Notes under the pieces: model-generated
What the model was told of the DNA's origin: nothing
Database searches by the model: none
The model's input: the letters and a program-made list of their open reading frames with translations, nothing else
Part shown: positions 2,876 through 53,775 of the stretch, one piece after another
How positions within the stretch are numbered: the first letter of the stretch is position 1
Layout of the letters: every line of letters starts with the position of its first letter
Translations under genes and position numbers: made by a program
Virus record (IMG/VR): IMGVR_UViG_3300002052_000004
Span: 1-60,562 of that record
DNA from: a virus
Taxonomy: Duplodnaviria > Caudoviricetes
DNA: 60,562 bases
Direction: 5' to 3' (one strand)

Positions 2876-5077
2876 ATGTCAGTATCTGAGAAACGTATTA
2901 AGCTAGCTATCGCATGGATAGAGGAGCATCCAGAGACTCTTACGAGTGTTAAGGGAAAGATAGAGGAACTGGTTGTAGCCACTGACAAAGCGAAAGCTAT
3001 GATTCAGAAATACGTCCCCGAAGGAGCAAAACAGCAGAAGATACTAGCTGCTATAGACCAAGCAGCGATGAAACAAGGGGACAACATACTACGAAACGTA
3101 CTCGCCTATAAGTTGCTTACAAACGCACAGGAAGCTATGCGCCAAGCCTCAGAAAAGAACGCAAAGATGCTGGGAGAATGGGGGAGTAAGTTAGGACTTG
3201 CTGGGAGAAGAATAGGTTACTTCGGGAGAATGATGTTCTATAGCATTCGGAATATAATGCGACTTGGTACACAGTTCCTTCGAATGTTCATGGGATTGTT
3301 CAAGACAGCTGGAGATTTCGGTGCGGCGTTAGAGCAAGTGTCATTTGCAATGGCTCTTCTTGAAAGTCAAGGACTTGTAGCAGATGAAGCAATGACACTA
3401 TTCGGTGAAACTCAGGATATATTGATGGAAAAAGGACCGCAGATATGGGCGTTGTTTGAGGGATTTAAGGCTCTTTTCACATCACTCGCCGTCGTCATAG
3501 TGTCGGAACTTTTGCCTGAATTAACGGAACTTCTGAATACGTTAGCAGCACTTCTTAACAGAGAGGATGTAAGGCAATTAATACATGATATCATGGTAAC
3601 TGTGCTTGACCTAGCAGATGCATTTATAGAGGCAATACCTTCAATGTTACCGGTGATAAAAGGAATGCTTGACTTGGCTGTGGCAGCTAAGCCACTAATC
3701 GTTGCATTGTTGCCACTACTGCCTGTAATACTCGCTCTTTCGTTGGGTCTTTGGGCATTGGGTCCGATAATACAAGTGATTGGATTTATCATGCAAGTGG
3801 CAGGTTTCCTCACAGGTGGACTTGGAATAGCAATGACCACTTTATTACCAATAGTAGTAGCTCTTGCAGGTGCAGTCGCAGTCGGTGTAGGAGTCTTCTT
3901 ACTACTCAAAGATACACTTGGGACGACTAATGCTGCAATAGTTGCTATCGGAGCTGCAGTAGCCGCATTCATAACAATATTCTTCGGAGTGAAGGCACTG
4001 TTATTAAGTGTCGGAGCCGCTGGAGCAGCTGCTGCACCAGGAATTGTGGCCGCCGGAACAGCATTGGGTGCTGCAGGAGTTGCAGCAGCTCCAGCGATAC
4101 CGATTATACTTGCAATCGGAGCTGCTATAGCACTAGCTGGTGCAGGATTCCTTATGGCAGGAGCTGGGGTAATGCTTGCGGTTGACGCGGTGATTAGGTT
4201 GTTGGAAGCATTGCCTCAGCTTGTACCTATGGTACCTTACTTGTTTGCAATAGCTGCTGGATTGATGGCAATAGCTGTTGCAGGGATAGTATTGCTTCCC
4301 GCAGCACTTGGATTAGGAGCAGCTGCTGTTACACTTATGATATTCGCAGGTGCATTAGCAGTGGTTGCTGCACTTTCTGGGGCGATAGGAGTAGTAGCGA
4401 CCGGAATCTTACTCTTAGCTCAGAGCGTAGGCACACTCGTGAAGTCTATGGTAGGGATTATACCGCTAGTCGGACCGACACTTGCACTATCGACTGCGAT
4501 GTTTGCACTGGCAGCTGCCGGAGGAACTATGATGTTCGGAGCACTTGGAGTTACCGCAATGGCTGGTTCTCTCTTCGTACTTAGTGGAGGTATAGTTGCC
4601 CTAACCGGTGCAATCTGGGGATTGGTTGCAGCTGCGACAGCATTCGAAGCAGTTGGCGATACTGTAACAAGTATTGTCGGCGGAATTTCTGATGCAGTAG
4701 GTGGATTGGCTAATGCACTATTCGGACTCTGTTTCAGACATGCAACACCTATGGCAGAGAAGTTTGGGAAGAGTTTGGTAGCCGTACAGAGTGATATGAT
4801 AAATACAGAAAAAGGACTACGTGATATGAGAGACGAACTACTAGAACCATTCTCTTGGCAAGCGGTAGAAGTGGCAACTGGAGCGCCTGCGATAAGAGCG
4901 GCAGGTGAGAGAGTTGGAGAAGCTGAGCCGAAAGAGCAGCATATTACAATTGAGATGCCTGTCACTGTTGATTTGACTGGCGCTGTTATTTCGTCAGATA
5001 TGGATGTAGATGAAATAACAAATAAAGTAGGAGAGAAGTTAGGAGAAAAAGCAAGAGACTTGGTGACACTATTATGA
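2876..5077 (+). CDS. Tape measure protein
   Basis: 733 aa, Ala/Gly/Leu-rich helical protein with long hydrophobic stretches; follows the chaperones. Confidence 0.85.
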   Translation: MSVSEKRIKLAIAWIEEHPETLTSVKGKIEELVVATDKAKAMIQKYVPEGAKQQKILAAIDQAAMKQGDNILRNVLAYKLLTNAQEAMRQASEKNAKMLGEWGSKLGLAGRRIGYFGRMMFYSIRNIMRLGTQFLRMFMGLFKTAGDFGAALEQVSFAMALLESQGLVADEAMTLFGETQDILMEKGPQIWALFEGFKALFTSLAVVIVSELLPELTELLNTLAALLNREDVRQLIHDIMVTVLDLADAFIEAIPSMLPVIKGMLDLAVAAKPLIVALLPLLPVILALSLGLWALGPIIQVIGFIMQVAGFLTGGLGIAMTTLLPIVVALAGAVAVGVGVFLLLKDTLGTTNAAIVAIGAAVAAFITIFFGVKALLLSVGAAGAAAAPGIVAAGTALGAAGVAAAPAIPIILAIGAAIALAGAGFLMAGAGVMLAVDAVIRLLEALPQLVPMVPYLFAIAAGLMAIAVAGIVLLPAALGLGAAAVTLMIFAGALAVVAALSGAIGVVATGILLLAQSVGTLVKSMVGIIPLVGPTLALSTAMFALAAAGGTMMFGALGVTAMAGSLFVLSGGIVALTGAIWGLVAAATAFEAVGDTVTSIVGGISDAVGGLANALFGLCFRHATPMAEKFGKSLVAVQSDMINTEKGLRDMRDELLEPFSWQAVEVATGAPAIRAAGERVGEAEPKEQHITIEMPVTVDLTGAVISSDMDVDEITNKVGEKLGEKARDLVTLL

Positions 5078-16046: not shown

Positions 16047-16709
16047 TCACTTGACAGGGTCAACAACTCCTGCGGCATCGAACCCTTTCTTTCTCTGTAC
16101 ACAGGCATTACACTTCCCACAGGGATGTTCTTTGCCTTCATAGCACGACCAAGTCTTCTCCCATGGAGTTCCCAGAGCTTCTCCTCGCAGGACTATCTCA
16201 CACTTCGTATCATCTATCAGTGGTACAACAACATGTGGTTTATCTCTTGAGCCGTATCGTAACATTACATTAATTGCATTAACATACGTAGGTCTTGTAT
16301 CTGGGTATCCTCCACTGTCAATCCAATTGAAGCCTGTGTAGATTTCCTTTGCTCCAACGACTTCCGCTACTGCCGCGCATAGTGCGAGGAAGATTGTATT
16401 CCTCATCGGTACGTATGTAAGTGCGCTGCCAGTCTTCTCCCAGACATCTTCATCCTCCTCATGTTCAGGCACATCAATGGTCTCGTTCGTTAACGCGGAA
16501 CCACCAATTTGTCTAAGGTCAATCTTTATCACCTTATACAGTACATTATAGTGCTTTGCGAGTTTCGCTGCCGCATTCATCTCTTTCTCGTGTCTCTGTC
16601 CGTAGTCAAAGGTTACTGCGAGAACATTCACTGCGTCGTGATGTCTCACTGCTAATCCAAGTGCGACTGCACTGTCCATTCCACCACTAAGCATTACTAT
16701 TGCTTTCAA
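16047..16709 (-). CDS. queC: 7-cyano-7-deazaguanine synthase
   Basis: SGGMDS, FDYGQRH, TYVPMRN, YPD, TWSCY...CGKCNAC. Confidence 0.95.
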   Translation of the reverse strand: MKAIVMLSGGMDSAVALGLAVRHHDAVNVLAVTFDYGQRHEKEMNAAAKLAKHYNVLYKVIKIDLRQIGGSALTNETIDVPEHEEDEDVWEKTGSALTYVPMRNTIFLALCAAVAEVVGAKEIYTGFNWIDSGGYPDTRPTYVNAINVMLRYGSRDKPHVVVPLIDDTKCEIVLRGEALGTPWEKTWSCYEGKEHPCGKCNACVQRKKGFDAAGVVDPVK

Positions 16710-17008
16710 GACTTTTCACCTCCCTTTACGCTTTTCTTTTCTGTTTCCTTCGTTTCCTCGGTTTTCGGAGGCTCTACAACTTTAGGTACCGGTGTAGGTT
16801 TAAGGAATGCTAGTAGCTCCTCCGAAAGTTCCTTCTCCAGTTTCTTCACTGTCGCAGTTATCTTCCTTTCCTTTGCTTTCCCGTCAAGTCCAGTCGTGTT
16901 TACGGATTCGAACTTCTCTGCTGGAAGACTAACTGTCACTCGTGTTGTATTTGCCGCCGTAATTACTTTCTTTACTTCATATTGCATATTCTCACCTCCT
17001 TGTTCCAT
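16706..17008 (-). CDS. Hypothetical protein
   Basis: ORF within the que cluster; RBS GGAGGTGA before an internal Met. Confidence 0.55.
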   Translation of the reverse strand: MEQGGENMQYEVKKVITAANTTRVTVSLPAEKFESVNTTGLDGKAKERKITATVKKLEKELSEELLAFLKPTPVPKVVEPPKTEETKETEKKSVKGGEKS

Positions 17009-17576
17009 ATATCAACTTTAGTGCCTCGTTTCTCGGTGGTTCAAAGTTGAGAAAGACCCCCCGTACTGCGTTTGTCACGGTGTACGCATTCGTATGTGCT
17101 GGCATACCGTAATCAAACTTTCCTCCGACTAACATGCAGGTATGCGTCCCTTCGATAACTACCATGCATCCAAGTGGTTCGAGACATTCATCGATTACAT
17201 CTGCCAACTCCGTATTCATTCCCTCCTGTATCTGTGGTCGCTTAGATATCGCTCGAACAGCACTAACGAACTTTGAAAGTCCGACAATCTTCTTGTGCGG
17301 AATGTACGCGATGTGTACTTTACCAAAGAACGGCCAGAGATGATGACAACACATAGAGACGAACTCTATATCCTTCACGATTACCATCTCACCGTGTTCG
17401 ACAGACAATGGTCGCTCAAAGAACTTCCTAATATCGATGCCAACTCCTGCTGTCATGTCCTTATACAGGTCAACAATCCTCCTCGGTGTCTCCTCCAACT
17501 CGTCAGTGAGCTCTATGCCACAACATAGCAGTAGGTCTCTCGCTTTACGTTCCTTTTCTTTCTGTGTATGCTCCAA
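16992..17576 (-). CDS. folE: GTP cyclohydrolase I
   Basis: ETPRR, SMCCHHLWPFFG, GLSKF, PQIQE, HTCM. Confidence 0.95.
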   Translation of the reverse strand: MEHTQKEKERKARDLLLCCGIELTDELEETPRRIVDLYKDMTAGVGIDIRKFFERPLSVEHGEMVIVKDIEFVSMCCHHLWPFFGKVHIAYIPHKKIVGLSKFVSAVRAISKRPQIQEGMNTELADVIDECLEPLGCMVVIEGTHTCMLVGGKFDYGMPAHTNAYTVTNAVRGVFLNFEPPRNEALKLIYGTRR

Positions 17577-17769
17577 CTATTTCACCTCCAATAACTACCC
17601 TCGTAATGGTATTTGTGTACGGTTGCAAGACCATACAGAATCGAACTCCACTTTGCAATCGTTACATTTAGCCTCGACAACTAGTTCACCCATCTCTATG
17701 TCAAATCTCACTTCATGCAAATGCAGTTCAACATCTTCGGACCTGCATCTGGGACAAATAACCATTTAA

Positions 17770-18462
17770 TCACCTCCCTCTCGCTCCGTGCCATAATAGC
17801 TTGTGTAACTGAGGAAGTATGCGAATATTCCGTCCGTTCTCCTGCACCCAGCTGATAATCTTCTTCATCAGTTCGAGGTCATTATCGACAGGCTGAATAC
17901 ATACCTGTTCGAAGTTATACTTATAATCAAGTCGTTTCACTACTGTAAAGTCTGTTTCGTTAGCTACGACGAACTTAAACTCTGCGATACCTGTAGCTCT
18001 GAATTCCTTTATTATAGCAGTGCTGAACGTTTCGCCGGATGAGGGTAACTTCGGGGAAACTACCCAGTGAGTCGGCGACCATTCCTTCGATGGACTCTTC
18101 GTACAGTTCGTCTCAATATGTACTTTCATGTAGAAGAGCCGCTCCATTAATTCAGTTAAATTTTGAACAAGTGGCTCTCCGCCTGTAATGACCACCATCG
18201 GTTGCTCTAGTCTCAACACCTCTCTCGCGATGAACTCCTCAGATAGTTCTAAATGGTCACCTCTATATGCATACTTCGTGTCACACCATTTGCAACGCAA
18301 ATTACATCCATAGAGTCTTATAAACGTACACGGTGTACCTATGTAGAACCCTTCACCCTGTATAGACTTGAATATCCCACCTCTCACGATTTTAAGCAAT
18401 CCCATACCTCCTCGAATAATAACCTGAGTACCTTCCACCAAGACGGCGTACGAAATGTCCAA
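17770..18462 (-). CDS. queE: 7-carboxy-7-deazaguanine synthase (radical SAM); likely start 18405
   Basis: SIQGEG, FIRLYGCNLRCKWCDT, ITGGEP, IETN, SPK, PQLHK. Confidence 0.95.
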   Translation of the reverse strand: MDISYAVLVEGTQVIIRGGMGLLKIVRGGIFKSIQGEGFYIGTPCTFIRLYGCNLRCKWCDTKYAYRGDHLELSEEFIAREVLRLEQPMVVITGGEPLVQNLTELMERLFYMKVHIETNCTKSPSKEWSPTHWVVSPKLPSSGETFSTAIIKEFRATGIAEFKFVVANETDFTVVKRLDYKYNFEQVCIQPVDNDLELMKKIISWVQENGRNIRILPQLHKLLWHGARGR

Positions 18463-18596
18463 GAAAGTGTCACAGGCTTGTCAACGAAGTCCAACTTAAT
18501 TCGAACATTCTCTGGGGTTAACACTATATGGTCAGGTAATGGCATTCTACTTAGCTGTCGCTTTAACGCCCAATAGAACACCCTATCCTTTATCAT
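18384..18596 (-). CDS. Hypothetical protein
   Basis: ORF in the - strand operon. Confidence 0.4.
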   Translation of the reverse strand: MIKDRVFYWALKRQLSRMPLPDHIVLTPENVRIKLDFVDKPVTLSWTFRTPSWWKVLRLLFEEVWDCLKS

Positions 18597-18881
18597 CTTC
18601 TTTCTCTCCTGTTAACCTGCCTTAATCAAGAATAGCAACACGCATATCGTTGCAATAACAGTACACAAGATATAAAGAACCCCATAATCTCCACAGTCGG
18701 ATATCTCTATAAGAGCGTCTAAATCAGGTTTGTGTTTGTCGTTTTCTTTTTGTTTCTTCATCTTTATTTCGTCCTTCCGTATTTCGCTCTAACTTTTCAA
18801 TCACCCAGTCGGTACTATCCACGATGAACTTCACGAATCTCCGTACGGCCCATTTGAGCACCTTCCGGATGAGTTTCCACA

Positions 18882-19286
18882 TCAGACCACTGCTCCTTGA
18901 TTCGGTCCCTCACAAAGCATGAAGCCCACATTTTTAATTCCATGAACCATCAACAGTCTTTTCTGAATCTCTTTCGAAATGTCTTCTACTGTTGGAATGC
19001 CGTCAACTGTAACGATGTTTAAATGTACACCGAGCCCTTTGTCTACAATTACTGTGTTTACCTCCTGCCAATATAATTCATCTCTCTTCGATATAATCAA
19101 CGCATGGTCGAATTCTTTAATTATTGTCTTAATAATTCCGAAGTCAACGAACTCTCCTTCTTCACATTCTATAACCATATCTCTCACGAAATACGTGTGA
19201 CCATGTAATGCTCCACACTTCGGGTGCTCCGGTATATAATGTGCGGAGTTAAACGTCAACTCTTTTATATACAATGTATTGAGCAA
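18882..19286 (-). CDS. queD: 6-carboxytetrahydropterin synthase
   Basis: FNSAH...CGALHGHTY, VDFG, FDH, PTVE. Confidence 0.93.
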   Translation of the reverse strand: MLNTLYIKELTFNSAHYIPEHPKCGALHGHTYFVRDMVIECEEGEFVDFGIIKTIIKEFDHALIISKRDELYWQEVNTVIVDKGLGVHLNIVTVDGIPTVEDISKEIQKRLLMVHGIKNVGFMLCEGPNQGAVV

Positions 19287-27179: not shown

Positions 27180-27692
27180 CTAACCCTCATGTTGACAGAT
27201 GTGTGCTGTCACACTACTCACACCTGCTTTATATCCTTCCAAGTATGCTTCTGAAACAATTGCGTTCTTCGCTAACTGTCGGAGGAGTGCAAACTCCGCG
27301 GACGGATATTCAACTTGCGCGTGGAGACCTTTCTGTTTCCAGCTATCCTTCTTCTGGTCATTTATTCCAGAGAGAACTCTCTCAAGCGTACTACCAGACA
27401 AAGTTCCATTTATCGCTTTCTCAATAGCGCTTTGCCTATTCTTCATCAAAGTTCGTAGGAACTTCTTGTGCTCCTCATATGGGTTTTCTGAGAACGTCTT
27501 GTAGTGACACTCGAGACACAACAACCGGCAATTTTCCATCTTAATGTTCGAATTATCTCCATCAGCATGATGTCTATGGAAGCCTTGAACCAATGGATTG
27601 AAGCACGTGCTGTTTGCACACACTCCATCTTGTTTCTTAAATACTTCATCAACTATCCACTGTGGAAAGTTCTTTCTTGTCTTCTCGCTCAT
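27180..27692 (-). CDS. HNH endonuclease with helical C-terminal extension
   Basis: RKNFP...KQDGVCA...C...HHADGDNSN...NCRLLCLECH; RBS GGAGGTGA places the start at ATG 27692. Confidence 0.85.
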   Translation of the reverse strand: MSEKTRKNFPQWIVDEVFKKQDGVCANSTCFNPLVQGFHRHHADGDNSNIKMENCRLLCLECHYKTFSENPYEEHKKFLRTLMKNRQSAIEKAINGTLSGSTLERVLSGINDQKKDSWKQKGLHAQVEYPSAEFALLRQLAKNAIVSEAYLEGYKAGVSSVTAHICQHEG

Positions 27693-27729
27693 ACATTTCA
27701 CCTCCAGCTCTCGAGTGGTCATACGTTGG

Positions 27730-28680
27730 CAGGTCGGTAACATGGTCTCTGCGGAGACCGCTCATGCTGAGTTTTCACAAGACCACATCCTGAGGGTCAC
27801 TCAGGCAAGTCATGTCTCTGGGGCTATGCGTTGGGTGCCAGAGCTCTCAGCATAGGAGTTTCTTTCACCTCCCTCGTAGAGCGCATCACTCTACTAGTTA
27901 CCCCGCTGTGCGGCCACTTATACCCCGTTCGTTACCTTATGAGGGATTATCCCACATTGGTATGCCTACCTGTGCAGTCTAAAGGACCTTCTTGATTCGG
28001 AGTCTTCCAGGTGTGTTACCTAGTCAACCCATGCCTTCAAGAAGGGGGTGTTTCCTTCATACTTTTGCAGTGGGCCTTTGTTGGGCAGCTTCTCGGTGCT
28101 GCGACCTCCCTAATACAACCCTCTCCGAGCCGGTCCGGAATCAAACCCGAACCAGAGGGTTGCCTCGCTTGCCGCACGGATTCCCGAGCTGCCTCTCAAC
28201 GAGGGCATATGGGAAGCACGGTACTCGAGGTCGTGCTTTCAGCCATGTACTAAGTAACTGCGTCCTGCATGAGGTGGCGTCTTACGACGTAGGCCTCTCG
28301 ACAGCTACGCAATTACTCAGCCCTTTCTCCTCACCAGGTGGGGCTTCCAACGACCTTTCACGGATGATGCACAGCGTACCGACCTGACCTCACGCGCGCA
28401 TACGTGTGTAGTTCATCCAGGTTTTCAAGGCCAGGAATCTACCTTTTTCACAGCGACTTTGGTTCGGTCGTGCATTATGGACATGCTCTTTAATCGGATT
28501 ATTTAGCTGCACATCGACCTATCTCGGCTGGGGTGAGCCAAACCGAGTTTAGTTTAAATAATGGGAAGGTTAATGGTGTCCTGGTTAGCGAGGCTAAATG
28601 CCAAAGTGACTCCCTCAAACTTACAACTCTAAGGCTGAGATGGTCACTGGAGTAGCTTTCTCGACCAGAACATCCATTTC
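27730..28680 (-). ncRNA. Candidate large structured non-coding RNA
   Basis: Gap of ~950 bp with no credible ORF and many complementary segments: 27730-27739/28377-28386, 27764-27771/27846-27853, 27970-27976/28368-28374, 28116-28124/28154-28162; GNRA-type loops on the - strand. Confidence 0.65.
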
Positions 28681-28690
28681 ATCTCTGTAC

Positions 28691-29932
28691 TTACTGTACT
28701 GGTGTCGCTTCTGGCATTACGACAGTCTGCTCCTCTGGCGCAGTTCTGAATATCGGTATAGCCCATATGGCTACGGCATTCAAGTTGACTCTCTGTACGT
28801 CTGGTAGCACCTCTCTCTTCTCCCGATCATACCCTGGTCCAATGTTCGTTCGGCCAACTACATAGACTCTCGAATCTGGTCCGAAGGTATCTATGACATG
28901 CTTCAACTCCGTTGGTACCCAGCAAGGTGTTCCCTCTGCTCCAAGGTCTTCTTTGCTTACATCCTCCAATACCATCATGTAACTCCCGTAATCCGTTGGT
29001 GTCCTGTTTATCCAAGTCACGTCAGCTTCGACGATGACTAGCCGTCTCTTGTCGTTCTTGTTTGCATTATGCCAGGCCATCAGTTCGTCTAACGAGCTTT
29101 TCAATGCTTCCGGCGCTGTTTGGAATATCTTGATTATCCTCTCCGTGGTTATTGGTTCATACTCCGGAAGCACTATCGGCTCAAACCGTGCCTGTGTTGA
29201 CCAGTTCATATGATATATATTCGGCGTATCACTCGACAAGTTCAACCTCGTTCGGAATCCCTTTCCGAGTGGCGGCATTGGTAACTCATTCGGGTCTCCT
29301 GCATTGCACATCGTTGCGAGGAGTTTGAAATTCCCTCCCCCCGCTGGTCTACCGAAGCTTAAGAGAGTTCGAATATACCTCGGAAGTAACGGCTTTCCAT
29401 AACTCGGGCTCTTTCTTCCTTTGACATTCTTCTCCGGGTCAGGTTTAACCATCCATTGTCTAGTATCTAACGGTGTCCCTGCTGGATAAACTTTGTCGCC
29501 GAACTGTGTATCCTCTCCGAGGACTTTCTTCTCAGCAACTGCTTGTGCTCTTGTCTCTTCGTTTGCATATAAATCCGCTTTCTCTTCCCTCTCTGAACGT
29601 GTTACGTCAATCGCTCCTGAGAGGCCCAGAGTGATGTAGTCGTAAGGTTTTGCTGGTGAACGCAGTGACGATTTAATCTTAAGGTAAACTCTGTGCCTTG
29701 CGGTACTGTCATACCACTCGGCAGTTTTCCCTGCAACGCCTTGTTTGAATATCGCTAGTTGCTCCTCGTACATCTTAGTTAGCTCAGCAAATGGTTTCCC
29801 TAGGGCTTGTGACCACGCTGTTAACTTCGCCAAAGTCTCCGCTGGCACAGCTGGTGCGGTTGGTGCAACTGGTACTGCTGCCGTTTTTTCTTCTTCTACA
29901 CTCATGGCGTTTTTCACCTCCTGTCCTGCCAT
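28691..29932 (-). CDS. Putative single-stranded DNA-binding (RPA/OB-fold) protein
   Basis: C-terminal OB-like segment (VIVEADVTWI...MVLED...CWV...FGPDSRVYVVGRT); located in the replication module. Confidence 0.5.
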   Translation of the reverse strand: MAGQEVKNAMSVEEEKTAAVPVAPTAPAVPAETLAKLTAWSQALGKPFAELTKMYEEQLAIFKQGVAGKTAEWYDSTARHRVYLKIKSSLRSPAKPYDYITLGLSGAIDVTRSEREEKADLYANEETRAQAVAEKKVLGEDTQFGDKVYPAGTPLDTRQWMVKPDPEKNVKGRKSPSYGKPLLPRYIRTLLSFGRPAGGGNFKLLATMCNAGDPNELPMPPLGKGFRTRLNLSSDTPNIYHMNWSTQARFEPIVLPEYEPITTERIIKIFQTAPEALKSSLDELMAWHNANKNDKRRLVIVEADVTWINRTPTDYGSYMMVLEDVSKEDLGAEGTPCWVPTELKHVIDTFGPDSRVYVVGRTNIGPGYDREKREVLPDVQRVNLNAVAIWAIPIFRTAPEEQTVVMPEATPVQ

Positions 29933-30391: not shown

Positions 30392-30455
30392 CACCCGACC
30401 AGAAAAAACATTTGGTTTCTGGTTTCGCCAGAATCTCACTGGCTCGTCAGGGGCG
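30392..30455 (-). ncRNA. Hammerhead ribozyme (type I topology)
   Basis: - strand: CGCCC-CUGACGA-GCCAG(UGAGAUU)CUGGC-GAAA-CCAGAAA(CCAAAUGUU)UUUCUGG-UC-GGGUG; complete core and three stems. Confidence 0.9.
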
Positions 30456-30519
30456 TTTCGCCGACCGATGTTTGTACATCGTTAGTGGAATATTCCACCA
30501 CTGTACTCTCACTGGACCC

Positions 30520-37213: not shown

Positions 37214-37398
37214 GTCTCTTTACCACCTCCGATACTATATGCTTGGCGGTCATGCCGCACCAAGCTTCATAAGTACGGAAAGTTGAAGCTAGCAACCATT
37301 TCTAGGAGTGAAGAGGGCTCTTATGCGGTTAGCCCTCACGGGGGTATTTGTTTTACCAGTGCATGGACACACCGCCGCAATCCCGCTCTGTCTAGTGA

Positions 37399-37668: not shown

Positions 37669-38154
37669 TTATAAATCTTTCCGTCCACGTTCAAGCCTCG
37701 TACACACGAACTTATATGCTCGTTTCGCTCGAGGAGTAAATCTCTTAATGTACTCCTTTATACGTTCCAACTCCCGTGTTGTATACTGCCGTTCAGCATT
37801 ACTTAAATGTTTCGATATTACTTTCAGGCGTGAATCGATATATGGTAATATAAACATCACAGCTTCACGTTTTATGACGAGATATGGTAAGAGTGTTTCG
37901 AGGAAATGTTTACATACTGGCAACTGGTAAACATAGAAGATGAATCCAGTATTTGCTTTTGTTATAAGACCTCTTGGAAATCGTTGTTTTATCAACTCTA
38001 ACACTAGTCGGTGCTGATTGCTGATTGAAATCTGTACTCGCAGGTACTCGCAATGTGGACTTGCAACGTGAATAGACCCTTCTCCATCGAATATTCCAGC
38101 GATGTATTCTACCGATAACATATTTGTTCCACATTTAATCCTTGGATGGAACAA
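37669..38154 (-). CDS. LAGLIDADG homing endonuclease (single motif; likely start 38121)
   Basis: YIAGIFDGEGSI motif, LLPYLVIKRE. Confidence 0.88.
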   Translation of the reverse strand: MFHPRIKCGTNMLSVEYIAGIFDGEGSIHVASPHCEYLRVQISISNQHRLVLELIKQRFPRGLITKANTGFIFYVYQLPVCKHFLETLLPYLVIKREAVMFILPYIDSRLKVISKHLSNAERQYTTRELERIKEYIKRFTPRAKRAYKFVCTRLERGRKDL

Positions 38155-44950: not shown

Positions 44951-45477
44951 TTTAATGATTCACCTCCTTCACATCTGTATTGAACAAAAAATGAGGGGTT
45001 ATTAGTTGGTTGTAGAAAGTTAATTCGTATATTTGTTTGTTAGTGTATATTAATAGTGTTATTGTAAAGTGGTCATTGTAAATGTTAAGAAAGAATTGAT
45101 TTTGTAGTGTTGTTATTGTATGTGGTTGAGTTTTTTGTTGTTGTTTCATTTTTGTTCAAGAGATTATAATACCGTATTACAATATAAAGTTTGTTACTAT
45201 GATTGAAATATGATACAACTATGATATATTACACAATATTATGCGGTTTAAGTCGACAGATTGTCGGTCAAAGAACTCTTAAGTCTTAAGTCTTGTATCG
45301 TAAGATTTGCTAGACGACTTTGCCATTTTTTTTAAGCCTCTCGCCTCTCCTGAGACACACGACTTGAGTCGTACGACTTGCGATACGTGAGCTAAAAAGT
45401 ATAGGAGCTATGTCTTATGTCTTATGTCAGGTCGAACATGACATATGTCACATGTCAGGACACTCATGACTCATATC

Positions 45478-45675
45478 GTAAGATTTAAGATAAGGGTGGT
45501 TGGAGAATGGAAGTGGTAGTGGATAGTAGTTTGGTTGTTTAGGTTTGTGGAGTGGTAATGGAAAGTGGAGTGGAGTTGGAGAATGGTGTAGTAGAATTGG
45601 ATGTGGAAGTGGATTAGTAATGTGTGGGATAGTGGGTATGGAGAGGATGGATATGGAGTGGTAATTAGTAGTGGT
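45478..45675. repeat. 198-nt cytosine-free, GG-rich low-complexity tract
   Basis: No C on the + strand between 45477 and 45676; recurrent TGGA/GTGG units. Confidence 0.9.
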
Positions 45676-51214: not shown

Positions 51215-52399
51215 TTGGTTACAGAGGAAAGAAATGCAACGACTTTACAAGCTGCCGGACAGTGGGCGAATGAATCCAACTTTACTGGAGCACATAGTGG
51301 CAGCTGTATGAATGAAGATACTGATGGTCACGTTTCTGGAGAGTTCAGTTTCAACTTCTCAGTCATTCCAGATGGCGCGACAATTGATGGTATCGAAGTT
51401 TTACTGCACTGTATTGCAGGGGACGGAGATGATGATTTAACAGTTGAGCTCTACGATTCAGTAAGCACATGGAGATTGAAAGACGTAGTTGACCCCGGTA
51501 GTGGTGCAGCATGTGGTGATTGTGTCGATAAGACAGTAGGGGGCGCAACTGACACCTGGGGAGGTACATGGACAGGTGCACATATCAAATCTTCAAGCTT
51601 CCGAATCCGAGTCACAGCAGTAAAAGCGGCTAAGGCAGGTGGATACTGGGCGTGTGATTACTGTCTCGTCACGGTTCATTATACTGCAGTAACATCAAAT
51701 ACGAAGGACTTTACAGCTGACGCGATTTTAAAAGCAATTGGAACGAAAAACTTCTCGATGGATGCGATGTTAAAGTTCGTTCAAACAAAGGTTTTCAACA
51801 CTGACGCATTGTTAAAACACGTACAGACGAAAGCATTTGATGTTGACGCATTGCTAAAAGCTGTGCCTACAAAGACTTTTGATGTAGATGCGATACTTCT
51901 AAAGGCACAGACAATAGATTTTACCGTTGATGCGCTTTTAACTGTACCGCAAACGATAGATTTCACAACGGACGCAGTACTTAAGCTTTCACCGAAGAAA
52001 ACCTTCGATGTAGACGCGATTTTGACGCAAGCTCTGACGAAAACCTTCACGGTAGACGCGATTTTAGCATTTGTACAGACGAAAACATTTACGGCAGATG
52101 CAATATTGTTCTTGAAACCAACGAAAAGTTTCACTGTGGACGCACTATTAAAGGCAATTCAAGCAAAAACCTTCACGGTGGATGCATTACTCCTGCAATC
52201 TGTGGAGAAAACATTCGTTGTGGACGCAATTCTTACGAAGTCTTTCACAAAGACGTTTGAAGTTGATGCACTTCTTACGAAAACTCTAACGAAAAGTTTC
52301 ACATGTGACGCAATTCTCGAAGGTGGAGTACCGCCAGAACCTGTAGTTGACCGTGTACCTTCACCCAGTCCGTCAGTATCTGTGAGCGTGAGTATATGA
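51215..52399 (+). CDS. Putative fibre protein with 15 tandem 14-aa repeats
   Basis: N-terminal beta domain (IPDGATIDGIEV), then KxFxVDA(I/L)Lxxxx(T) x15 at 51704-52318. Confidence 0.75.
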   Translation: MVTEERNATTLQAAGQWANESNFTGAHSGSCMNEDTDGHVSGEFSFNFSVIPDGATIDGIEVLLHCIAGDGDDDLTVELYDSVSTWRLKDVVDPGSGAACGDCVDKTVGGATDTWGGTWTGAHIKSSSFRIRVTAVKAAKAGGYWACDYCLVTVHYTAVTSNTKDFTADAILKAIGTKNFSMDAMLKFVQTKVFNTDALLKHVQTKAFDVDALLKAVPTKTFDVDAILLKAQTIDFTVDALLTVPQTIDFTTDAVLKLSPKKTFDVDAILTQALTKTFTVDAILAFVQTKTFTADAILFLKPTKSFTVDALLKAIQAKTFTVDALLLQSVEKTFVVDAILTKSFTKTFEVDALLTKTLTKSFTCDAILEGGVPPEPVVDRVPSPSPSVSVSVSI

Positions 52400-53775
52400 A
52401 AATCGTGAGACCTGATAAAGAATTTACCTTAACCGCGACAGTAAAGGATGAAAGGGGAAGACTTACTGACCCTGAGACACAAGAAATTACGATAAAAGAC
52501 CCTTGGAAAGACCCGATAATAACCTTAACTACGCCAGAAAGAGTCGATAAAGGACTTTACCGTGCTGTGTTTAAGCTACCAAAAGACGTGGAGGAAGGCA
52601 CTTGGATAATTGAATGGCTCATTACTGTTCATAGAAGAGCGGCTGTACAGAAGACAGAGATACAAGTTTCAAGGAAGGTTATCGGAAAGAGAGAGCTGCA
52701 GATGGAAGTTAGACTGAAAGATTACTTCATAAACTTCATAGGAGAAAGGGAAGTTTCATCAATTATGCTCAAAAGTTTGTCGAAAAAAGTGCTCGTAGAC
52801 TGTGGAGAAGGCAAAAGTATTCCAGAAGGAGTGACGGAAATCATCGTAACTCATGCACATCCAGAGAATGCATTCGGATTGAAAAGCAAAAAACTTAGTT
52901 ACCCTGTATATGTGAACAAATTTACAAACCCCATCCTGGTGAAGAAGAACTTCCCGTTCCGGCGGAAAATCTTCTGGAAGAAAGCATTTCAAATCGGTGA
53001 GATGAACATCACTCCTGTGCCTGTTTTACATTCGGTGAACGCACCAATGACAGGACTAATAATCGAACTCGGTGGGTATAAAGTTGGTTACTTTCCGGAG
53101 GTACTTGGCATACACGATAAGTCTGTGCTGAATCAACTTAACCTATACATCGGTGACGGGAAGTCCCTCGATGAGGATATTGTCAGCCAGAGGGAGAAGA
53201 AGAAATTCGGTCACGCATCTATTCGTACACAACTTGCTTGGTTACAGAAAGCAGGTGTTAAACGTGCCCTCTTCGTAAACCTCGGAAAATGGGCGAGAGA
53301 CTCTTCAATTGTGCGAGAGGTATTTAAAGCTCTCGGAGTTGAGTTTGATATGAAAGTTGTTGCTGTTAACAGTGACTACCGTATACATATCTCGGACAAG
53401 TTAGCCCTTCAGAAACGTCTTCCGAGGGTAACCACTCTGGAAGATTTATTGAGTCATTGCAGAGCACCAATTGCTCTCGAAAAGGGTAGCACCGTTATCA
53501 TCAGTGGAACGGTGAAGCCAGGAGAAATGGAAGGCAGCGTTGAACTTCAACAAATGCAGGGCGATGAGACATTAATCCTCCTGAATGTTAGTGACATTCT
53601 CCCACCGGACATCGCAGAGCGTCTTCTGCAGAAATATTCCGATAAGTACAGTGAAGAAGCCGCGGACTCTGTGCGTAATCTCGCTTTATCCTCCGGTCGT
53701 AGATTAGCGACAATTGTTGACATGAATTCTGCACGAGAGAAAGAAGAAAATCCAAAGGAGAGTAATGAACAGTGA
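52396..53775 (+). CDS. Ig-like domain fused to a metallo-beta-lactamase-fold domain
   Basis: LVDCG, THAHPEN (degenerate HxHxDH), VLHS, IGDG, GHAS. Confidence 0.7.
   Translation: MKIVRPDKEFTLTATVKDERGRLTDPETQEITIKDPWKDPIITLTTPERVDKGLYRAVFKLPKDVEEGTWIIEWLITVHRRAAVQKTEIQVSRKVIGKRELQMEVRLKDYFINFIGEREVSSIMLKSLSKKVLVDCGEGKSIPEGVTEIIVTHAHPENAFGLKSKKLSYPVYVNKFTNPILVKKNFPFRRKIFWKKAFQIGEMNITPVPVLHSVNAPMTGLIIELGGYKVGYFPEVLGIHDKSVLNQLNLYIGDGKSLDEDIVSQREKKKFGHASIRTQLAWLQKAGVKRALFVNLGKWARDSSIVREVFKALGVEFDMKVVAVNSDYRIHISDKLALQKRLPRVTTLEDLLSHCRAPIALEKGSTVIISGTVKPGEMEGSVELQQMQGDETLILLNVSDILPPDIAERLLQKYSDKYSEEAADSVRNLALSSGRRLATIVDMNSAREKEENPKESNEQ

Follow-up and report, generated by a model that had tools for sequence, protein, structure and literature searches.

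The stretch of DNA analysed here (the window, 60,562 nt) is a virus record that is complete, with direct terminal repeats. Its genes encode a tail tube, a portal, a family-B DNA polymerase, an ERCC4 nuclease, TrmB- and MarR-type regulators, archaeal domains of unknown function and enzymes of the preQ0 pathway (QueC, GTP cyclohydrolase I, PTPS and a radical SAM protein), a set on the basis of which we take the virus to be tailed and of the archaeal type. A packed minus-strand operon of this genome contains a gap of 998 nt, which extends from the stop of a gene encoding a protein of 413 amino acids (aa) to the start of a gene for a small HNH nuclease. An earlier note, made from the sequence alone, had proposed that the gap holds a large, ornate non-coding RNA. 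Our analysis supports a strongly folded non-coding element at this position, most likely an RNA, and raises the possibility that two predicted bulge-helix-bulge (BHB) motifs release it from the operon transcript. In the direction of transcription, the locus comprises the following parts:

28691-29932, minus strand: complete gene for the 413-aa protein, a predicted multi-OB-fold, RPA/SSB-like protein binding single-stranded DNA; its stop lies at 28691
27693-28690, minus strand: the 998-nt gap
27180-27692, minus strand: HNH gene (170 aa; start at 27692); beta-beta-alpha-metal domain at the N-terminus, then three long helices

The gap shows no sign of encoding a protein. Its longest minus-strand open reading frame (ORF) is 46 aa, and its dicodon coding score is about 0 on both strands (0.008 and 0.085), compared with 0.64-0.74 for the neighbouring genes, which were part of the training set, and 0.29 for the HNH gene, which was not. 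The view of the region as a non-coding gap in a packed operon was thus borne out. Nor could we recognize a decayed gene: apart from the missing coding signal, there was no trace of a reading frame and no tblastx similarity to related loci. A scan for tRNA and tmRNA genes found none. The region is comparatively GC-rich (0.54 at 28001-28500 versus 0.43-0.48 in its surroundings) and holds only two direct repeats, of 10-11 nt. The motif GUGAAA, which in part reflects the ribosome-binding-site consensus, occurs five times in the RNA, versus 0.64 times per kb across the genome. One exact 10-nt repeat on the minus strand, GGAGGTGAAA, is present both at the HNH ribosome-binding site (27696-27705) and in a hairpin loop within the RNA (27863-27872), and the two copies could compete for the same upstream partner.

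Folding energies indicate that the gap is highly structured. On the minus strand its 997 nt fold with a z-score of -6.32, compared with -3.85 on the plus strand (20 shuffles each), and for the core of the region (27727-28390) these values are -6.85 and -4.0 (25 shuffles each). By comparison, 11 coding controls of equal length from the same genome gave z-scores between -1.87 and +2.73 (25 shuffles each). Measured against shuffled controls, the test that the earlier note had suggested, the folding of the core is far beyond chance. The main elements of the predicted structure, with pairing probabilities (p) where these were obtained, are:

27730-28386, minus strand: ornate core of about 657 nt, a 10-bp closing stem around a multi-branched interior
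27730-27739/28377-28386, minus strand: closing stem of the core, p 0.94 in the maximum-expected-accuracy (MEA) fold
27763-27771/27846-27854, minus strand: stem, p 0.93 in the MEA fold
27904-27911/28369-28376, minus strand: stem, p 0.96
28115-28163, minus strand: 49-nt hairpin within the core, predicted fold
28115-28124/28154-28163, minus strand: stem, p 0.92 in the MEA fold
28249-28321, minus strand: 73-nt hairpin with a 15-bp stem within the core, predicted fold

Much of the structure proposed in the earlier note recurs here. Three of its four long-range stems are present in the MEA fold; the two sides of the remaining one (27970-27976/28368-28374) are complementary, but the fold chooses the pairing of 27904-27911 with 28369-28376 over it. 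All four of the hairpins that it named are found in the MEA fold, and its placement of the 3' end about 25 nt before the HNH ribosome-binding site agrees with a last stem that ends 25 nt before GGAGGUGA. By our own arithmetic, a lone perfect 10-bp inverted repeat is expected about 0.5 times per kb by chance, and we therefore place weight on the overall energy and on no single stem. Collectively, these results confirm a non-coding element that is real and strongly folded, in all likelihood an RNA transcribed from the minus strand.

The same folds contain a feature that the earlier note did not describe. BHB motifs are where the tRNA-splicing endonuclease of archaea (EndA) cuts, and they are found in tRNA introns, in pre-rRNA processing stems and, rarely, in mRNA leaders. 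We used the hBHBh' definition, in which each of the two strands of a 4-bp central helix is followed on its 3' side by a 3-nt bulge. The placement of the bulges follows from the tRNA anticodon, the first two bases of which lie in the central 4-bp helix according to the description in PMC4090602. Using that description together with the tRNA 37/38 splice site, we assume a cut between the second and third nucleotides of each bulge. In the terms of PMC7714728, archaeal splicing endonucleases recognize a 4-bp helix between two 3-nt bulges.

The minimum-free-energy (MFE) fold of the 997 nt holds two BHBs, both on the minus strand and in the canonical orientation. In the MFE and MEA folds alike, the central helix of each is exactly 4 bp and has the same sequence, CGAG/CUCG. 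One motif (BHB-1) matches the strict definition and forms a compact hairpin, and the other (BHB-2) matches a slightly relaxed definition and closes the entire ornate domain over a long range:

28572-28678, minus strand: BHB-1 (strict), a 107-nt hairpin directly after the SSB-like gene; helix probabilities 0.93-1.00
28664-28672/28577-28585, minus strand: helix h of BHB-1, 9 bp plus 5 more
28660-28663/28589-28592, minus strand: central helix of BHB-1, CGAG and CUCG
28657-28659 and 28586-28588, minus strand: bulges of BHB-1, AAA and CUA, both pure bulges
28653-28656/28593-28596, minus strand: helix h' of BHB-1, 4 bp
28587-28657, minus strand: predicted excision product of BHB-1, 71 nt
28553-28562, minus strand: AT-rich TTATTTAAAC, between the stems of BHB-1 and BHB-2, read from the sequence
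27698-28536, minus strand: BHB-2 (slightly relaxed), a long-range closing stem of 23 bp; helix probabilities 0.74-0.99
28527-28536/27698-27708, minus strand: helix h of BHB-2, 5+5 bp, including GGAGGUGA (27698-27705) and a bulged A at 27703
28523-28526/27712-27715, minus strand: central helix of BHB-2, CGAG and CUCG
28520-28522 and 27709-27711, minus strand: bulges of BHB-2, AUA and AGA
28515-28519/27717-27721, minus strand: helix h' of BHB-2, 5+4 bp, with an extra A (27716) facing the first bulge
27710-28520, minus strand: excised RNA of 811 nt predicted from the geometry of BHB-2, comprising the whole ornate domain

Written out in order, the top strand of BHB-2 is CCAGC-CGAG-AUA-GGUCG and its bottom strand is UGACC-A-CUCG-AGA-GCUGG. 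The AT-rich stretch between the two stems may be an archaeal TATA-like box.

Within predicted folds, BHBs occur at this locus beyond chance. No strict or relaxed BHB appeared in the folds of dinucleotide shuffles (0 of 45 in one set and 0 of 140 in another), in any of 30 other 997-nt minus-strand windows, or on the plus strand of the region. BHB-1 was also the sole strict motif when the transcribed strand of the whole genome was folded in 120 overlapping 1-kb windows (MFE folds), a scan that is blind to motifs spanning more than one such window. Across alternative fold windows of 856-2,301 nt, BHB-2 was recovered in six of six and BHB-1 in each of the four that contained it. As isolated stems, BHB-1 and BHB-2 have energies of -26.0 and -30.6 kcal/mol, respectively; the cut-off used in a study of Haloferax volcanii circular RNAs is given as -9 kcal/mol (PMC7714728).

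Strict BHBs were also found in two other sequences. In support of the motif, a relative with a 77-kb genome and a member of the same HNH family (virus G805) has one at 52723-53040 (minus strand), around an 83-aa ORF, with an h of 6 bp, a central helix of CUCC/GGAG, bulges AGA and UUA and an h' of 9 bp; it was the sole match in 21 windows. Another contig (L006) has one at 4397-4742 (plus strand), about 250 nt upstream of an HNH homologue, with an h of 5 bp, a central helix of UCCC/GGGA, bulges AGC and UAG and an h' of 10 bp, in a region that folds with a z-score of -2.4; this was the sole match in 56 windows from nine loci. The 77-kb virus additionally carries an ORF-poor, GC-rich island at 51520-52180 (equivalent to L032 13520-14180; minus strand), with a GC content of 0.55-0.62 versus 0.40 for its genome. 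This island has a folding z-score of -3.8 for the minus and -2.7 for the plus strand, has no Rfam match, lies away from the HNH gene of that virus and shows no similarity to the RNA described here.

The reading that we favour, with a probability of roughly 0.45, is that the gap encodes a BHB-bracketed giant RNA that is released from the operon transcript and circularized by the tRNA and rRNA processing enzymes of the host. The RNA (about 0.8 kb) would be transcribed as part of the operon, between the SSB-like gene and the HNH gene, and the host tRNA-splicing endonuclease would cut it at BHB-1 and BHB-2. Two products would come free, the 71-nt hairpin and the 811-nt ornate RNA, both most likely circular and thus resistant to exonucleases, and an RNA ligase would rejoin the flanking mRNA. 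What we observe is a region that is non-coding, strongly folded and endowed with BHBs specific to the minus strand; from this we infer transcription, cutting, circularization and a function for the circle.

Such a reading would place a known BHB mechanism in a new, viral setting. As described in PMC7714728, the products of endonuclease cutting are ligated and the excised piece is circularized, and BHBs in rRNA processing stems give rise to circular pre-16S and pre-23S RNA. The locus resembles archaeal pre-rRNA in several respects: a long helix formed by flanking sequences surrounds a large structured RNA, with a BHB in mid-helix; two BHB stems stand in tandem on one transcript; and a large RNA circle is predicted to result. 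It differs from pre-rRNA in that the enclosed RNA has no Rfam rRNA match and sits in a viral protein-coding operon, in that the second motif is relaxed, and in that processing is here a matter of prediction. For BHB introns in mRNA, PMC7714728 names only two cellular cases, the 5' untranslated region of HVO_1309 and cbf5. The locus is like these two (the latter in Crenarchaeota) in having a BHB-bounded piece in the leader of a protein gene, for which removal by the host endonuclease and circularization are predicted. The HVO_1309 intron of H. volcanii, however, is cellular and 46 nt long, whereas the predicted RNA is viral, elaborately folded and 811 nt long; and unlike in both mRNA introns, it is the excised part and not the mRNA that looks like the product. 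A literature search combining 'bulge-helix-bulge' with archaeal-virus terms returned no description of a BHB in an archaeal virus transcript.

It is possible, although we consider it doubtful, that the virus thereby mimics pre-rRNA processing, having host machinery make an 811-nt circular non-coding RNA and a 71-nt circular hairpin from its replication operon. If so, the ring, being stable, could act as scaffold or decoy, or it could occupy the host endonuclease and ligase during infection, and, taken with the BHB cassettes of related viruses, it would point to an undescribed viral strategy of BHB-driven RNA circularization. Should the favoured prediction hold, a large, structured RNA circle would be encoded by a virus and made by host enzymes; giant 'ornate' RNAs, of which few are known, would gain a new route of biogenesis, and viruses a further means of using or disturbing host RNA maturation.

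Several considerations weigh against release and circularization. The proposal is built on thermodynamic prediction for a single sequence, and as no RNA homologue was found, it has no support from covariation. The BHB test was made post hoc, on one feature among many examined, and when BHBs are sought by pattern alone, with no folding step, the minus strand yields 613 chance matches; the motif therefore comes easily at the sequence level, and a pattern scan is unspecific. BHB-2 is non-canonical, with its extra A facing the first bulge and its bulged A in the outer helix; endonucleases of the (alpha-beta)2 and epsilon2 types are described as tolerating non-canonical bulges (PMC7714728). The BHB of L006, the one case near an HNH homologue, has inside it a small ORF and an AT-rich stretch that resembles a promoter, which makes its meaning doubtful; such motifs may arise without function. 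Were TTATTTAAAC a promoter, the transcript would begin inside the outer helix of BHB-2. Finally, the HNH ribosome-binding site would still lie in a 10-bp hairpin after excision, so that HNH expression would gain nothing evident.

To place the RNA among known families, we compared the whole window with the covariance models of Rfam 15, of which none matched at gathering score. Even at E≤10, the interval 27500-28900 gave only five rows at chance level (11.7-17.6 bits), and no Rfam match was obtained to GOLLD, ROOL, OLE, raiA, HEARO, RNase P, rRNA or group I/II introns. The failure of the earlier note to match the sequence to GOLLD, ROOL, HEARO or group I/II introns was thus confirmed by covariance models. 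A self-splicing intron was rejected in particular, as neither Intron_gpI nor Intron_gpII nor the domain models match. Nor is the RNA an intron in the upstream gene with an exon missing, because the C-terminus of the 413-aa protein (an end of the form ...PEA..VQ, conserved in a four-protein alignment) is common to three homologues.

Homologue searches were equally negative. blastn (word size 11) found no RNA homologue among phage records at either E 1e-5 or E 10, and none among plasmids; the complete records of seven related viruses and two archaeal metagenome-assembled genomes (MAGs) also lacked one, and scanning IMG/VR for exact 22-mers and 18-mers turned up nothing. Archaeal genomes sampled from two phyla (401 + 401) yielded only six matches of 20-29 nt, which we regard as chance because they fall at six different query positions. 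Two single-sequence covariance models run against 24 sources (412,740 nt) recovered only the window itself. When the 413-aa protein, the HNH protein and the family-B DNA polymerase (PolB) were each used as single queries against IMG/VR, no close relatives were found; the nearest protein relatives are P0002 (62% identity, SSB-like) and P0009 (57%, HNH), which probably share a contig, since the longest one given for each is 16,533 bp. Public runs containing the sequence were limited to two marine-sediment DNA metagenomes, with no RNA run among them, and both are identical to the window, so there are no variants to compare. The RNA is therefore an orphan among all of the collections searched, and the 'class' of RNAs envisaged in the earlier note is, with no second copy found, a single sequence.

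A metagenome scan returned a 1.4-kb contig of the same virus (L002) and nothing else. From 29309 down to 28055, a position within the RNA, this contig and the virus are identical; the contig then continues into the start of an AT-rich, archaeal pilin-like gene; its tail (1233-1364) is 94.7% identical over 132 nt to a contig of an Aenigmatarchaeota MAG. L002 is probably an assembly chimera rather than an integration site, joined (at virus position ~28059) through a shared word of about 13 nt.

The genes on either side of the RNA were characterized further. The AlphaFold2 model of the 413-aa protein consists of tandem OB folds (pLDDT 73) and has 44 Foldseek matches in the PDB at E≤0.001, led by CTC1, Teb1, TEBP-alpha, POT1 and SSB, on which basis the protein is predicted to be RPA/SSB-like. 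Pfam HNH matches 10 of the 11 members of the HNH family, and the best PDB profile match of the family is the HNH domain of IscB (E 0.0047), covering the generic HNH core only. The AlphaFold2 model of the HNH protein (pLDDT 89) has an N-terminal HNH core and three long helices; Foldseek returned nothing for it at E≤0.001, and the weaker rows mix McrA, TasH, Cap5 and T4 endonuclease VII. The protein is thus a generic small HNH nuclease. No PLMP motif was seen in its sequence, and Pfam scans showed no transposase or insertion-sequence (IS) ends. Downstream of it lie a 64-aa ORF and a Sak4-like ATPase gene.

Homologues of the HNH protein (31-44% identity) were found at eight loci, on six IMG/VR contigs and two contigs in archaeal MAGs. 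At all eight, the gene follows tightly behind another ORF, and at none is there an upstream non-coding gap or similarity to the RNA. In a more distant relative (L003, with an SSB-like protein of 32% identity), the Sak4-like gene (E 4e-20) begins one base after the SSB-like gene, which means that about 1.7 kb, comprising the RNA, the HNH gene and the 64-aa ORF, is extra in the virus studied here. The earlier note had suggested that the RNA might form a ribonucleoprotein (RNP) with the HNH protein and, as a check, had asked whether homologues stay linked to the HNH gene. No such linkage was seen at the eight loci, and the RNP is not supported, given those loci, the generic nature of the nuclease and the adjacency of the flanking genes in L003. 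By the same count (0 of 8 loci), the linkage of a nuclease family to an upstream structured RNA that is characteristic of OMEGA systems was not found.

Explanations other than excision were also weighed. HNH could be controlled in cis by an RNA that is structured, non-coding and linear, or by a giant 5' leader, that hides its ribosome-binding site and so sets how much nuclease is made, in which case the BHB geometry would be incidental; we consider this unlikely, although it has several features in its favour. In the outer helix, GGAGGUGA is paired with UCACC-CCAGC, which lies 830 nt upstream (p 0.98-0.99), the absence of any run of at least five T between the RNA and the HNH gene on the minus strand means that the two are probably co-transcribed, and the second exact copy of GGAGGTGAAA inside the RNA could permit alternative pairing. 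When the upstream RNA was shuffled 1,000 times, however, 49 shuffles reached the energy of the hiding duplex (-32.7 kcal/mol), and among 12 other genes two formed a duplex as strong with their own upstream kilobase, so that the hiding duplex is not significant and was rejected as stand-alone evidence. An ornate domain of 800 nt also exceeds what is needed to hide a ribosome-binding site, the HNH homologues at the eight other loci do without a leader, and two BHBs with an identical central helix would go unexplained. The BHBs are likewise unaccounted for if the RNA is a free-standing, linear, trans-acting molecule whose function has nothing to do with its neighbours, perhaps with its own promoter at ~28555 and no endonuclease processing, a scenario that we hold to be distinctly unlikely. 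Its appeal lies in the candidate TATA-like box upstream and in a size, fold strength and viral setting reminiscent of GOLLD and ROOL, large ornate RNAs often carried by phages and prophages (PMC12286853); shared features are a virus-borne, protein-free RNA, a length of 0.6-0.8 kb and many helices. The present RNA differs from those in being BHB-bracketed, in its archaeal rather than bacterial host and in being a single sequence without a family; moreover, GOLLD, ROOL, OLE, raiA and HEARO go unmatched in Rfam even at E≤10, no second copy was found and no terminator precedes the HNH gene.

It is improbable that the region is what is left of a mobile insertion (a decayed intron of the archaeal type, for example, or a homing-endonuclease cassette) or captured foreign DNA, with a structure owed to its origin and no present function. 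The ~1.7 kb extra relative to L003, a GC content 7-10 points above that of the genome and the score of 0.29 for the HNH gene in the codon model of the virus, albeit for a gene outside the training set, would all fit such an origin, and large archaeal rRNA introns bounded by BHBs are known, some with endonuclease genes. Decay, however, would be at odds with an intact structure (z-score -6.85) and two intact processing motifs, and the region shows neither a reading-frame trace nor tblastx similarity to related loci nor any similar sequence in the 802 sampled archaeal genomes. We give very little credence to a guide or scaffold RNA that acts in an RNP with the HNH protein, as omega-RNA (HEARO) does with IscB or IshB. 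The arrangement is suggestive, since a structured RNA directly 5' of an HNH-only ORF of about 170 aa matches the layout and size reported for IshB, in an account that also covers IscB and IsrB (PMC11610941), and the IscB HNH domain is the best PDB sequence match of the family. That match is limited to the generic core, however, and Foldseek adds nothing at E≤0.001; the RNA is 3-4 times larger than HEARO/omega-RNA and unmatched by the HEARO model even at E≤10, there is no transposon context (no transposase or IS ends in Pfam scans), and the HNH family lacks an upstream RNA at the eight other loci. Equally remote is a function at the DNA level, be it as an origin of replication or as a site for recombination or packaging. 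The region does lie within a replication and recombination module (SSB, HNH, Sak4 and PolB genes), but it is GC-rich and nearly free of repeats, it folds clearly better on one strand, its BHBs are strand-specific, and another gap of the genome, at 45006-45670, looks far more origin-like. We thus retain BHB-driven excision and circularization as the favoured reading; should that prediction fail, the region would still rank among the most strongly folded non-coding kilobases, but as an orphan.

The gap at 45006-45670 is AT-rich (665 nt, GC 0.33), lies between divergent gene blocks and is dense in short direct repeats of the GTCTTATGTC and GGAGTGG types, making it the likelier origin or control region of the virus genome. 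Elsewhere, a gene set of the preQ0/archaeosine type at 16047-19286 (minus strand; QueC, GTP cyclohydrolase I, radical SAM QueE-like and PTPS) suggests that the virus modifies its own DNA with a 7-deazaguanine derivative. A second endonuclease gene is present in the form of a 161-aa LAGLIDADG homing-endonuclease ORF (37669-38154, minus strand; Pfam E 2.8e-5), and 270 nt downstream of it is a GC-rich gap of 185 nt (37214-37398) in which the 120-window scan found no BHB. Upstream of a 114-aa gene and the 413-aa gene, a 243-nt gap contains a motif resembling a type III hammerhead (30417-30470, minus strand). Its score with the Rfam model RF00008, which has a gathering score of 48.5, is 29.6 bits (E 0.029 when the whole window is searched), and it is the sole Rfam row with E≤1 in the genome; both cores, CUGACGAG and CGAAAC, are there, as is a cleavage triplet (GUC), but stem III is weak (four of seven pairs).

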